64,000 nucleotides of DNA from Anaerolineae bacterium (GTDB taxonomy: Bacteria > Chloroflexota > Anaerolineae > Aggregatilineales > Aggregatilineaceae): assembly GCA_016930015.1 (NCBI GenBank), contig JAFGHR010000121.1:11701-75700 (forward strand), read 5' to 3'. The translations under genes and the position numbers were made by a program. The notes beneath the pieces are model-generated. The model had not been told where the DNA came from. It did no database searches and saw only the letters and a list, made by a program, of their open reading frames with translations. Shown one piece after another: positions 19,849 through 37,170 of this stretch (its first letter is position 1; the number at the start of each line of letters is the position of its first letter).

Positions 19849-19977
19849 CCGCGTACCATAAAAAATGATTCGTAGAAGCAGGATATGGCCGATTCCATAC
19901 GGCCATATCCTGAAATTAGGTATCAATTGTGCCGGAAAACCATTCGCGCGGCTAAGGATACCATTCGTGAGGGAGAC

Positions 19978-20691
19978 ATGTTCAGCGGAAAAGCGCAGTT
20001 GCTGGTACTGAGTGAAGAAACGCGAGGCGGAAAGTTACAAAACAGCCTTGAAATCGTTGGGTTTCATGTCGTTGTGAAACACACCGCCTTTGCCGGAATA
20101 AGTTTCGCTGAAAACGCCTATCCGGACCTGGTGATCGTAGGCTCTCATCTACCCGATGGGACAATCGTCGAGGTTTGCCGCCAGTTGCGAGAAACCCGGT
20201 ACTATGTGCCGATTATTGTTTATGTTGAGCAAGCCGATGAATATGATCACGTCCTGACCCTGGAGATTGGTGCAGATGATTATGTCGCCGAAACAATCAA
20301 AACGCGCGAGTTAGTCGCACGGATTCGAGCACAACTCCGGCGAGCCTACGAGTATTCAAAACCCGATACTGATGTGCTCAATGTGGGGGGCCTGGTCATT
20401 GACTGCACCCGAGGCCAAGTATTTTGTGACCGGCGTTCGTTAGACCTGACGCCAATCGAGTTCCGTTTGTTGAGGTTCTTGGTCCAACATCGCGATCACG
20501 TATTGTCCCGTGCGCAAATTCTCAACCAGATTTGGGGTTATGGACTGCAACCGTATGGTGAGCAAATGGTGAATGTGCATATCTGCCGGCTGCGGCGAAA
20601 AGTAGAGGCCGATCCACTCAACCCCGCGCTGATCTTGACGGTACGTGGATTAGGCTATCGCCTGGTTTCAAACCCTGGCCATGTCATTTAG
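19978..20691 (+). CDS. OmpR/PhoB-family winged-helix regulator with a degenerate (phosphorylation-incompetent) receiver domain
   Basis: The C-terminus (LTPIEFRLLRFLVQHRDHVLSRAQILNQIWG...TVRGLGYRL) is typical of the family. The receiver has G, V and E in place of the Asp, Thr and Lys. The start is uncertain (19885 is the alternative). Confidence 0.8.
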   Translation: MFSGKAQLLVLSEETRGGKLQNSLEIVGFHVVVKHTAFAGISFAENAYPDLVIVGSHLPDGTIVEVCRQLRETRYYVPIIVYVEQADEYDHVLTLEIGADDYVAETIKTRELVARIRAQLRRAYEYSKPDTDVLNVGGLVIDCTRGQVFCDRRSLDLTPIEFRLLRFLVQHRDHVLSRAQILNQIWGYGLQPYGEQMVNVHICRLRRKVEADPLNPALILTVRGLGYRLVSNPGHVI

Positions 20692-20785
20692 CTTTGTAGA
20701 GACAGATAAGGCCATTCCAGAAGTTAAAAAACTCATTTGCTGCGCACCAGGGTAAACTCTAGAAGGTGCAGGTGGGCAAGGGAAC
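20691..20785 (+). repeat. conserved ~95-nt intergenic element, copy 1 (possible structured RNA)
   Basis: Aligns with 36804-36898 and shares the blocks TTCCAGAA, TTTGCTGCGC, GTAAACTCT and AGGGAAC. Confidence 0.7.
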
Positions 20786-21293
20786 TCCCAGGCGGAGAGA
20801 CGATCCGGGTGAAGATCAATGATTTTGGGTTTCAGCTTGCGGCCCACCCATCTTGAAGCGGCGCACGGATCGCTGTAACCACAAGTGCAAAAATCAGGGT
20901 GATACAAACAGGCCAATTTTATATACATTTGGGGTGCCTGTCACGGGTAGGCCATAGTCTCATAGTCTGGACTGTCCCCAGTTTAGTGATCTTTCCGCGC
21001 TTTATGTAGAGTGACTGCCTGTGTTTCATTTTAGCTCTTGCCTCAATCTACAAAGACAAATTCGACAAATACCTTGTTTCTGCAATAAACTACCCTGGAA
21101 AAGCAAACTTTGGCTTGTTTACGCGAATAACAAAAACGATACGCGTTCATGTTTAAGTCCGGAGCCAATCCAATGAACCAACCCTGAATTTTTATCTTTT
21201 GCAGCAAAAAATGTTCAGAAATTCCGGTGTATGTTGTTGTTCAGTGATCGATGCAGCCGGGCATGATAGATAACTCTGCAAGGAGAGCGCATT

Positions 21294-34313: not shown

Positions 34314-36821
34314 ATGAAAACCTCAACCTGGTTGCAAATGGCGCGGATGGCATGGCAGTATTTGAAGAGGCGAAAACTGCGGACAGCCCTCACGACGCTG
34401 GCGATTGTGTTTGGTGTTGCGCTGATCTTTGCCATCAATCTCATCATGCCCAGCGTCCTCGATATAATGAAGGAATCGCTGGAATCTGAAACGGAAGTGG
34501 TTGATCTCAGCATTGTGGATCGCATCGGCGAATCGTTTGATCCGGCTCCGTTGACTGAAACCTTGTTGAAAATCGATGGGGTGGAAGGCGTATCAGGGGT
34601 TTTGCGCCGCCGCATTATTCTGCCGGCAGACAACAACCCGCTGGGTGACATCTCACGCATTGAGATGATCGGTGTTGATCCAGCCACTCAATCCGCTGTG
34701 CGGACGTATGATCTGCGCGAAGGACAGATGCCAAAAGCCGAGGGCGAAGCGGTAGTGTCTGCGGAACTCGGTAAACTGGGTGAAACGATCGCGGTGACAA
34801 CGGCCAATGGCCTCAAATCGTATACTATTGTTGGGCTTCTGAAAGACGATCCCACTGTCGAGCGTCTGATCGTCACGCTGCCGGATGCTCAAACCGCGCT
34901 GAATCTGGTTGGTCGTGTCAATCTTCTAGAAGTGGCCTTTAGTGCTGGCGTTGATACCGACAAATTAAGCTCGCAGATCGAGGAGACGCTCGGCGATCAC
35001 TATCTTTATAATGTCACTTCGGAAGAGGAATTTAGCTTCGCAGAAGTAGCCTATTTGATGCTCAACCTGTTTGGCATGATCGCGCTGTTTATGGGTGGCT
35101 TCTTGATCTTCAATACGTTTCGGACAGTCGTCATCGAACGCCGTCATGATCTGGCGATGCTGCGAGCAATTGGCGCGACCCGCCGCCAGGTTATGCAACT
35201 GATCCTGATCGAAAGTGTGCTGCAAGGCGTACTTGGAACACTGCTGGGCCTCGTGTTGGGGTATCTGCTCACGCTGACGGCTACAGATTTTTTGGGTAAA
35301 TTTCTCGACCAATTTATGGCTGTGGAGGATTTAGAAATCACCTTCCAGCCTGGCGCCTTTGCAATAGCCATTGGTATGGGTGTTCTCTCAACCCTGCTGG
35401 CGGGTTACTGGCCGGCCCGCCGCGCCGGACGGACGTCGCCCTTGGATGCGTTGCGCCCCATGACGGCCAGCGATCTACAAAAGGCGAATCGCTGGAGTCT
35501 GATCATCGGCTTTGGGATAATGGTCGTCGCGGTACTGATGTTGATCGGCAGTGACAGCAGCGCCGCCTTTGGCGCAATCCTATTCCTGATCGGTGCGGTC
35601 ATCGCCGGGCCAGGGCTGGTCGTGCCGGTAGCGCGCTTGTTCAATCCCCTGTTGACCCTGTGGTTTGCCCGCGAAGGTGATCTGGCACGCAATAACCTGA
35701 TCCGCCAGCCAGGGCGGGCAGCGATCACGGCCAGCACGCTCATGATAGGCCTGGCTACCTTTATCATGGTGGCTACGCTGGTCAGCGGGATAGTGGGCTT
35801 TACACATGATCTGGTTGAAAGCAACTTTGCCAGTGATGTAATGCTGATACCACCGGCAATTGCCACCTATAGCAGTCTCGTTGGGGCAGATGAAAATCTG
35901 GGGAATCAGTTACGCGAACTACCGGAAGTGGAGTTGGTTTCAGAACTACGTCATGCCGCCAGCGTCAAAGACAACTTGAATCTGGACGTGTTCGGGATCG
36001 ATCCGAACACTTATCCCCAGGTTGCGCCTTTTATATTTGTAAAGGGCGATCCTGAGCAAGCCTATGCCGACCTGAGCCAGGGGCGCACAATGATCATGAA
36101 TTCGTTCCTTGCTTCGTCATTGAACCTGGAAGTGGGCGACGAGTTCACCCTGCCGACGGTAGAGGGCGACCAGCAGTATCGACTGGTGGGCATCGGCAAT
36201 GACGTACTGAACCTCAAGCTCAATGCGATCTTCATCTCGCATGAAAACCTGCAAGCTGACTTCCACAAAAGTGAGGCGATCATGTTGATGATCGATCTCA
36301 CACCGGGCGCGGATGAAACGGCAGCAAAAGCGCAGATCGAAAGCGTAGCACAAGATTATCCACAGTTCACTGTAAAACTTGCGCGGGAATACCGAGAAAA
36401 TATGATTGAAGCGGTGGAGAGCAGTATAGGCATCTACTATACGATCGCCATTTTGATCCTGATTCCGGCAGCGTTGGGGTTGCTCAATACGTTAACCATC
36501 AATATCCTGGAACGCACCCGCGAAATCGGCATTGTAAGGGCAGTCGGCGGCAGTCGTAAGCAGGTCCGGCGCATTGTGATTGCGGAAGCGCTGCTGTTAG
36601 GTTTGTTCGGCGCGGCAGTCGGGGTGCTGGTCGGGGTAGCGATGAGTTATGGCTTTACGCTAGTTTTCACCATGATCGGATGGAAAGTGCCGTATGTCTT
36701 CCCGGCGATAGGCATCATCGCGGCGATCATTATCGCAATTATGCTAGGGTTGTTTTCCAGCATTCTTCCAGCGCGGAACGCTGCCAGGCTGGATATTATT
36801 CGCGCTTTGCAGTATGAATAA
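34314..36821 (+). CDS. FtsX-family ABC transporter permease (duplicated FtsX module, 835 aa)
   Basis: There are two FtsX-like TM bundles. The C-terminus ARNAARLDIIRALQYE is typical of the family. Confidence 0.85.
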   Translation: MKTSTWLQMARMAWQYLKRRKLRTALTTLAIVFGVALIFAINLIMPSVLDIMKESLESETEVVDLSIVDRIGESFDPAPLTETLLKIDGVEGVSGVLRRRIILPADNNPLGDISRIEMIGVDPATQSAVRTYDLREGQMPKAEGEAVVSAELGKLGETIAVTTANGLKSYTIVGLLKDDPTVERLIVTLPDAQTALNLVGRVNLLEVAFSAGVDTDKLSSQIEETLGDHYLYNVTSEEEFSFAEVAYLMLNLFGMIALFMGGFLIFNTFRTVVIERRHDLAMLRAIGATRRQVMQLILIESVLQGVLGTLLGLVLGYLLTLTATDFLGKFLDQFMAVEDLEITFQPGAFAIAIGMGVLSTLLAGYWPARRAGRTSPLDALRPMTASDLQKANRWSLIIGFGIMVVAVLMLIGSDSSAAFGAILFLIGAVIAGPGLVVPVARLFNPLLTLWFAREGDLARNNLIRQPGRAAITASTLMIGLATFIMVATLVSGIVGFTHDLVESNFASDVMLIPPAIATYSSLVGADENLGNQLRELPEVELVSELRHAASVKDNLNLDVFGIDPNTYPQVAPFIFVKGDPEQAYADLSQGRTMIMNSFLASSLNLEVGDEFTLPTVEGDQQYRLVGIGNDVLNLKLNAIFISHENLQADFHKSEAIMLMIDLTPGADETAAKAQIESVAQDYPQFTVKLAREYRENMIEAVESSIGIYYTIAILILIPAALGLLNTLTINILERTREIGIVRAVGGSRKQVRRIVIAEALLLGLFGAAVGVLVGVAMSYGFTLVFTMIGWKVPYVFPAIGIIAAIIIAIMLGLFSSILPARNAARLDIIRALQYE

Positions 36822-36898
36822 AGCCGTTCCAGAATATAAAACGCTCGTTTGCTGCGCGTTAGAGTAAACTCTGGCAGCAGGAGGGTGAGGCAGGGAAC
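36804..36898 (+). repeat. conserved ~95-nt element, copy 2; it overlaps the last FtsX codons
   Basis: Aligns with 20691-20785 (see findings). Confidence 0.7.
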
Positions 36899-37024
36899 AA
36901 AAGCCGGAAGGTACATAGTCAAGCCGCACGTATTGAAAGGCAGCGAACGATGGATGTATGTGGCGCGGGTCCGCCGCCATTATTCCTCATTCCCCTTTTG
37001 ATGCGATTACCCTGAAATTATGCA

Positions 37025-37052
37025 TTGACGTGTTGCCGACGATTGGTATAAT
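37025..37052 (+). promoter_or_regulatory. sigma-70-type promoter of the tRNA gene
   Basis: TTGACG, a 16-nt spacer, then TATAAT, ending 11 nt before the tRNA 5' end. Confidence 0.7.
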
Positions 37053-37063
37053 ACGGTTTGTCG

Positions 37064-37135
37064 GGCGACGTAGCTCAGCGGTAGAGCAGGGGACTCATAA
37101 GCCCTTGGTCGTGTGTTCAAATCACACCGTCGCCA
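37064..37135 (+). tRNA. tRNA with CAU anticodon (elongator tRNA-Met, or tRNA-Ile2 if lysidinylated); no encoded CCA
   Basis: A manual cloverleaf gives acceptor GGCGACG/CGTCGCC, D stem GCTC/GAGC, anticodon loop CTCATAA and T arm GTGTG-TTCAAAT-CACAC. G1-C72 is paired, so it is not an initiator. Confidence 0.9.
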
Positions 37136-37142
37136 CACCTGA

Positions 37143-37170
37143 CCCTCTGGTCCGTTTCAGAGGGTTTTTT
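37143..37170 (+). terminator. rho-independent terminator after the tRNA
   Basis: CCCTCTG / CAGAGGG stem followed by TTTTTT. Confidence 0.8.

Follow-up and report, generated by a model that had tools for sequence, protein, structure and literature searches.

Why should two unrelated operons of one bacterium carry the same short sequence at their 3' ends? The question arises in a 64,000-nt stretch of an Anaerolineae genome (assembly GCA_016930015.1, contig JAFGHR010000121.1, positions 11,701 to 75,700; the window), where a sequence of about 95 nt occurs behind an OmpR-type response regulator gene (copy 1) and again at the end of an FtsX/MacB permease gene (copy 2). An earlier note on this DNA had proposed an element conserved at the RNA level. 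Our analysis favors, with a probability of roughly 60%, two decaying, diverged copies of a fragment derived from a miniature inverted-repeat transposable element (MITE), with no demonstrated function; their location at gene ends would reflect the preference of the parent family, named FB here, for TAA/TTA targets.

Two homologous copies restricted to one genome

The core of copy 1 lies at 20691-20785 and that of copy 2 at 36804-36898; both are on the + strand, forming direct repeats with a spacing of 16,112 nt. The likeness of about 95 nt with a few single-base gaps, as first described from inspection by eye, was confirmed by MAFFT alignment of the two cores, in which 69 of 96 columns were identical (72%) and 2 were gap columns. 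An ungapped core (20706-20772 against 36818-36884) was 76% identical and was the top direct repeat of the whole window. The local alignment of the two 900-nt neighbourhoods scored 63, compared with a mean of 21.6 (sd 2.0) and a maximum of 30 in 200 shuffles, and copy 2 was recovered from the 4.04-Mb genome with E=4e-8 when copy 1 was the blastn query, showing that the likeness is real and that the two copies are homologous rather than alike by chance. With softer scoring, a weaker likeness stretched over ~20675-20812 and ~36788-36920.

The substitutions between the copies were biased towards transitions, with 16 transitions and 9 transversions. The identity blocks TTCCAGAA, TTTGCTGCGC, GTAAACTCT and AGGGAAC had been singled out earlier as solid. 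When the same number of mismatches was placed randomly, however, the longest run reached at least 10 in 66% of the trials, and 16% had 4 or more runs of 7 or longer, indicating that the blocks match random placement and give no sign of patterned constraint. Identical runs of 8-10 bases in a pair that is 72% identical are therefore no evidence of constraint. Both copies had also been said to begin at stop codons. In copy 2 the aligned TAA (36819-36821) is indeed the FtsX stop codon, though the copy starts within the last codons of the gene: its first 18 nt are the last FtsX codons (ALQYE, stop) and the remainder is the FtsX 3' flank. In copy 1, by contrast, the aligned TAA (20707-20709) lies 16 nt beyond the TAG stop of the regulator gene (20689-20691).

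The two copies were restricted to this genome, and the further copies or orthologous conservation that the earlier note had looked to did not appear. In the 4.0-Mb metagenome-assembled genome (MAG), nhmmer with --max recovered two copies only, the next match having E=0.63, and BLAST found no copy in 41 relatives. A sequence-only covariance model gave nothing convincing in 41 other genomes of the family (top foreign match, 20.5 bits), and in 150 other genomes of the order the sole match of a structured model was the FtsX flank of one relative, G013 (E=0.03). The exact core TTTGCTGCGC-N6-GTAAACTCT was met in metagenome, genome and viral contigs at unrelated sites only (a Synechococcus gene and a few chance sites). 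All 12 FtsX orthologs of the family (12/12) ended in ...LDIIRALQYE-stop and then diverged, mostly into hairpin-plus-U terminators. The element was absent after six further FtsX homologs in public assemblies (73-80% identity), and absent after the regulator orthologs, the closest informative ones being at most 76% identical.

The best regulator homolog was a 100%-identical contig of the same organism. The Logan contig SRR13394437_644462 (6.5 kb) was 100% identical to the window at 17.0-23.1 kb over 6,080 nt, showing that the SRR13394437 sample contains this organism. With the sequence-only model, a 19-nt exact match to copy 2, AAAACGCTCGTTTGCTGCG, was detected in two genomes of one genus (G013:C50:20535-20589, and G045). 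It was rejected as a relative of the element, as it falls within the part of a 419-aa secreted-protein open reading frame (ORF) that encodes the signal peptide, on the other strand, the frames are out of step and about 0.1 such matches are expected by chance; the match is probably a coincidence.

A TAA/TTA-targeting MITE family and the left ends of the copies

All-against-all blastn of the genome (word size 11) revealed 261 non-coding repeat loci in 38 families, two of them large (124 and 44 loci) and 25 with two copies. The longest exact match between copy 1 and copy 2 is 10 nt, so a word size of 11 misses the pair and the number of two-copy families is a lower bound. FB is one of the two large families, with about 47 left ends (E<1e-3) and size classes of ~78, 104, 120, 125 and 138 nt, built around the palindrome CCCCTTCCCTAAGGGAAGGGG. 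Its termini read GGCTG(AA/TT)CCA(A/G)GAAAATAA ... TTATTTTTATGGCGCAGCC; GGCTGAACCAAGAAAATAA is an end sequence of the FB type. Among 36 full-length FB copies, 24 had matching 3-nt flanks, which were TAA or TTA in 20 of the 24, indicating that FB makes a 3-bp TWA target duplication. For 9 of the 36, the triplet at the flank doubled as the stop codon of an ORF at least 100 codons long. Both the existence of the family and its habit of targeting TAA/TTA are thereby established. A typical short member (~78 nt, GGCTGAACCAGGAAGATA...TTATGGCGCAGCC) lies on the + strand of the window at 2409-2490 and represents the reference family, not a copy of the element. Further examples elsewhere in this genome (G000) are at C41:16405-16489 and C118:37024-37109.

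The other large family, the bigger of the two, was also MITE-like, with members of ~210 nt and GGGCTATCGCTTCAAA ends, and gave 185 nhmmer matches at E<=1e-3 in the 4-Mb MAG. Its inverted ends are GGGCTATCGCTTCAAATGA ... TTTTGAAGCGATAGCCC, with G/C-rich internal palindromes (e.g., G000 C21:25598-25812 and C83:6172-6381), and no member was found on the contig of the window.

When the copy 1/copy 2 profile was run against the genome, its best non-self match was the left terminus of FB; 8 of the 14 weak matches inspected, this best one included, were such termini, all in a single register. In this shared register the FB terminus falls on the aligned TAA, 20707-20709 for copy 1 and 36819-36821 for copy 2. 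The segment resembling a MITE left end spans 20707-20722 in copy 1 (TAAGGCCATTCCAGAA, + strand), where it consists of the TAA and a weak FB resemblance, and 36819-36863 in copy 2 (TAAAGCCGTTCCAGAATATAAAACGCTCGTTTG..., + strand), where the FtsX TAA is followed by a resemblance to FB. A targeted 1.4-kb search with the FB left-end profile gave 7.2 bits (E=0.0034) for copy 2 and 3.9 bits (E=0.038) for copy 1, both alignments being in register from the TAA. Pairwise comparison of copy 2 with three FB consensus sequences gave P=0.001-0.003 against dinucleotide shuffles.

A true FB member was present at the same FtsX stop codon in a relative. The FtsX ortholog of G013 is 80% identical over the last 299 aa, and its flank, alone among the ortholog flanks, resembles copy 2 for ~25 nt past the stop. 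The sequence at the TAA stop of this ortholog is one of a repeat family that has at least 40 matches in G013, and it was matched by the FB profiles of the present genome with E=3e-6 to 1e-5, showing that an FB-type MITE sits exactly at the FtsX TAA stop in another genus. The occurrence of this sister family in that genus indicates that FB is old and widespread in this bacterial family. Copy 2 aligned to the G013 MITE over its first 45 nt with a score that 0 of 1000 shuffles reached; beyond nt 27 the alignment was not significant (P=0.22). The MITE at the G013 stop codon represents either an ancient insertion shared with the present genome or a stop codon that has been targeted repeatedly. G013 is the same DNA as GCA_964472565.1; this MITE, whose right end has decayed, is located at G013:C6:4009-4111.

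We infer FB ancestry for the left end of the copies, which we take to be neutral remnants. The left 16-45 nt would derive from the FB left terminus. Since FB targets TAA/TTA, often as a stop codon, such a descent would account for the TAA with which both copies start, at or just past a gene end and on the coding strand. The right 50-90 nt have no relation to FB. In both copies the FB-like left part meets this unrelated right part at the same junction, indicating that their common ancestor was already truncated or chimeric.

Several points weigh against this reading. Copy 1 resembled the long FB consensus (P=0.011), but its comparisons with the short and mid consensus were not significant. When the FB left-end profile was searched against the whole genome, the copies were not reached at E<=10, and the reverse match had E=0.63. 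Beyond about nt 45, neither copy was like any of the three FB consensus sequences (P=0.2-0.9); past this point copy 1 gave a single marginal value, in a G-rich stretch, against the consensus of the G013 family (P=0.026). The FB right-end profile had no match within 640 nt of copy 1 or 290 nt of copy 2, an inverted-repeat scan found nothing fitting at either copy, and no TAA/TTA occurs where the likeness ends (~20812 and ~36920), although a TAA stands at the left of both. No partner transposase of FB was found in the 87.6%-complete MAG, in which PF13359 gave nothing. Further, the ~30 nt left of the TAA are alike in the two copies (P=0.03-0.07 against random gene ends, as a banded local score over 35 nt upstream), which a clean transposition does not predict. 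Finally, that ~100 nt stayed recognisable at 72% in two places is compatible with neutrality and is not proof of it. Because a right inverted repeat, a right end and a target duplication are all absent, the copies fail the structural definition of a MITE, and we file them as MITE-derived rather than as MITEs. The earlier note had concluded from the lack of a U-tract, a transposase and terminal inverted repeats that the sequence was no obvious MITE; the U-tract and the inverted repeats are indeed absent, but its verdict was too strong in view of a left end that resembles the FB terminus.

The sole PF01609 (DDE_Tnp_1) transposase match in the MAG was G000:C45:1-2744, an insertion sequence with inverted ends of the GGGTTTTCCTATTCTC type that is unrelated to both MITE families.

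The second copy could have arisen from the MITE-derived fragment by two routes. A variant element would have transposed between TAA sites, or ~135 nt comprising the last 18-30 nt of FtsX, the degraded MITE and its flank would have been copied behind the regulator gene. The latter route predicts likeness left of the TAA, where GCTTTG.AG matched at 8 of 9 positions and CTGG..AT.T.ATT was shared further left. We lean slightly towards this ectopic duplication.

Alternative readings and genomic surroundings

A plain micro-duplication, in which ~115-135 nt of the FtsX end and its native 3' flank were copied to a place after the regulator gene by illegitimate recombination and then decayed, would need no mobile-element ancestry and would make the FB likeness coincidental. 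It agrees with the genuine FtsX codons, conserved in all orthologs, with which copy 2 opens, and with the broken look-alike of these codons in copy 1 (GCTTTGTAGAGACAGATAA), where likeness continues to ~30 nt left of the TAA. Also in its favor are the lack of a right end, of an inverted repeat and of a target duplication, and an FB link that falls short of significance at genome scale. However, the upstream likeness is marginal (P=0.03-0.07), the first 45 nt of copy 2 match both FB and the G013 MITE (P<=0.003) in the register of the family terminus at the TAA, and the same FtsX stop codon is the site of a real FB member in G013, leaving an origin by simple duplication doubtful, if worth keeping in mind. 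A functional RNA module in the 3' untranslated regions (UTRs) of both operons is improbable. Such a module, perhaps a domesticated MITE, would be transcribed as part of the regulator and FtsX mRNAs and would act through a small hairpin and its flanks, either as a small RNA processed from the 3' UTR or as a signal for stability or processing. Both copies lie on the coding strand right after a gene, and no strong intrinsic terminator separates either copy from its gene, the nearest weak terminator-like sites being 140-260 nt downstream. Both also retain a 4-bp hairpin with a UAAA loop, AG(G/A)G-UAAA-CUCU, with a single change from G-U to A-U. In copy 1 (AGGG-UAAA-CUCU, 20749-20760, + strand) it was read from the sequence, has 4 pairs including one G-U, and occurred in some predicted folds, but RNAalifold did not keep it in that form as a consensus helix; in copy 2 (AGAG-UAAA-CUCU, 36861-36872, + strand) its 4 pairs are all Watson-Crick and are enclosed by UUGCUGC/GCAGCAG. 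The hairpin and its pairing-preserving change had been noted before and are present in both copies, but the enclosing CUGC...GCAG stem that was described with them falls at non-homologous columns; on the 3' side, 7 nt separate the hairpin from that stem in copy 1, compared with 1 nt in copy 2. Copy 2 folded somewhat more stably than dinucleotide shuffles of the 100-nt RNAs (z=-1.60), whereas copy 1 was at shuffle level (z=+0.36); on the - strand the values were -0.91 and +1.49, respectively. RNAalifold gave 20 pairs, none of them compensatory, with a weak consensus energy of -10.6 kcal/mol and a covariation term of -1.25 kcal/mol, a comparison of two sequences that has next to no statistical power. 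No Rfam 15 match to the copies appeared at gathering scores in a search of the whole window, or up to E=5 around both copies apart from noise; tRNA-Met and noise were all that these searches returned. The RNA is thus of shuffle-like folding, without an Rfam match and not kept after orthologous genes or found in the other genomes searched; its identity blocks are compatible with random mismatches, and the habit of the FB family already accounts for a gene-end location on the coding strand. The earlier claim of a conserved RNA element was accordingly not borne out. In a more specific form, which we consider quite improbable, a domesticated MITE fragment would be kept in the 3' UTRs of the atypical response-regulator and PadR-ABC-FtsX exporter operons, where its RNA (an AGRG-UAAA-CUCU hairpin and a purine-rich tail) would couple their stability or give a shared small RNA.

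A coding function was assigned very little probability, and so was a site acting at the DNA level. Conservation was said earlier to be at the nucleotide rather than the protein level, in agreement with our finding of no protein-like conservation in any frame; no Pfam family reached its cut-off for the small ORFs of either strand, and the only sub-threshold matches were to the minus-strand ORF of copy 1 (best E=0.027). A translationally coupled micro-ORF, whose ATG overlaps the end of the upstream gene and which uses the same TAA stop in both copies, can nevertheless be drawn on the + strand at 20681-20755 in copy 1 (24 aa, MSFSFVETDKAIPEVKKLICCAPG) and at 36816-36869 in copy 2 (17 aa, MNKAVPEYKTLVCCALE). 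The frame is open in both, and the candidate translations share the motif KA(I/V)PE..K.L(I/V)CCA, in which hydrophobic positions and the CC pair are retained. However, a hand count over 16 codons gave ~8 non-synonymous and 4 synonymous changes, with no signal of purifying selection, and the nucleotide likeness runs on equally for at least 40 nt beyond the stop. The ATG of copy 2 is formed by the FtsX codons TAT-GAA (Tyr-Glu), the first of which is TAC in most orthologs; the KAVP residues correspond simply to the FB terminus translated in that frame, which the FB consensus closes after 11 codons and which is closed in the related G013 sequence. No Shine-Dalgarno sequence could be read, and the copy 1 ORF had no Pfam match in a search that covered ORFs of at least 20 residues. 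As a DNA-level site, the direct repeats would be att-like recombination sites flanking a 16-kb segment (20.8-36.8 kb) beside a tRNA-Met gene, or a shared regulator-binding site. Their spacing of 16,112 nt and the position of copy 2, ~145 nt upstream of tRNA-Met, fit such sites. However, the repeats do not overlap the tRNA, and an identity of ~72% between the copies contrasts with the normally identical sequences of attachment sites. The segment encodes no integrase (its genes include alpha-galactosidase, two GH94 enzymes, alcohol dehydrogenase, ABC exporters and the PadR-ABC-FtsX operon, which is conserved as a unit in relatives) and shows no break in composition. The hypothesis of a 16-kb island bounded by att sites was therefore rejected.

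The regulator gene upstream of copy 1 spans 19885-20691 on the + strand and is preceded by a gene for an 864-aa solute-binding protein; 3' of copy 1 are ~500 nt with no convincing ORF and then the alpha-galactosidase gene. The FtsX/MacB permease gene (34314-36821, + strand, 835 aa) is the last of the PadR-ABC-FtsX operon. The names of its homologs assign the organism to Chloroflexota, close to Anaerolineae. No promoter-like site, no U-tract or terminator-like site and no terminal inverted repeat were found inside the element. The tRNA-Met gene downstream of copy 2 (37064-37136, CAT anticodon) is a self-contained single-tRNA unit with a near-consensus promoter (37025-37052; TTGACG, a 16 nt spacer, and TATAAT with an extended TG) and a strong hairpin-plus-U terminator (37141-37166). 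The 49 nt directly 3' of copy 1 (20796-20844, GAGAGACGATCCGGGTGAAGATCAATGATTTTGGGTTTCAGCTTGCGGCC) were 82% identical to G000:C124:33126-33173 of this genome (E=8e-5 with a 521-nt query), an intergenic sequence on another contig upstream of an argininosuccinate synthase-like gene, and may be another small fossil repeat.

Comparison with known elements

In this lineage, look-alike sequences that start at stop codons should be compared with the local MITE families first, since a TAA/TTA-targeting family often hits stop codons. A functional 3'-UTR module, if true, would be a neat case of exaptation, and at present nothing points there; the domesticated fragment, if true, would exemplify lineage-specific exaptation of a mobile element for post-transcriptional control among Chloroflexota.

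Tourist-like MITEs and their bacterial counterparts are mobilised by transposases of the IS5 / PIF-Harbinger type and make a 3-bp TNA/TWA target duplication. Like these MITEs, represented here by FB, the element starts at a TAA, is FB-like in register over its first 16-45 nt, and is short, non-coding and placed at a gene end, as are 9 of the 36 FB copies. Unlike them, it has no right inverted repeat, no right target duplication and no FB likeness past ~nt 45; it exists as two copies only, which are 72% identical, and no partner transposase was found in the MAG.

The 3'-UTR-derived small RNAs CpxQ, SroC and DapZ of enterobacteria end at the intrinsic terminator of their mRNA and are conserved with the host gene. 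The element likewise begins on the coding strand, at a stop codon or close to one, but it has no U-tract terminator and is absent after orthologous genes.

Correia repeat-enclosed elements of Neisseria, MITEs of ~100-155 bp that duplicate TA, are transcribed together with the genes beside them and can supply promoters, terminators or RNase III sites. The present element is similarly a short intergenic repeat that adjoins genes and would join their mRNAs, and Correia elements are the best model for how such a remnant might affect an mRNA. However, Correia elements have 26-bp inverted repeats and hundreds of near-identical copies, whereas the element consists of two diverged copies with no inverted repeat and no internal promoter-like or terminator-like site. 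Repetitive extragenic palindromes (REP) and the bacterial interspersed mosaic elements (BIME) are also repeated extragenic sequences at the 3' ends of genes, but REPs are palindromes of 20-40 bp in many copies, while the element has two copies and no palindrome beyond the 4-bp hairpin. Set beside these systems, the pair is ordinary: a degraded dispersed repeat of low copy number, in a genome with hundreds of MITE-like elements.

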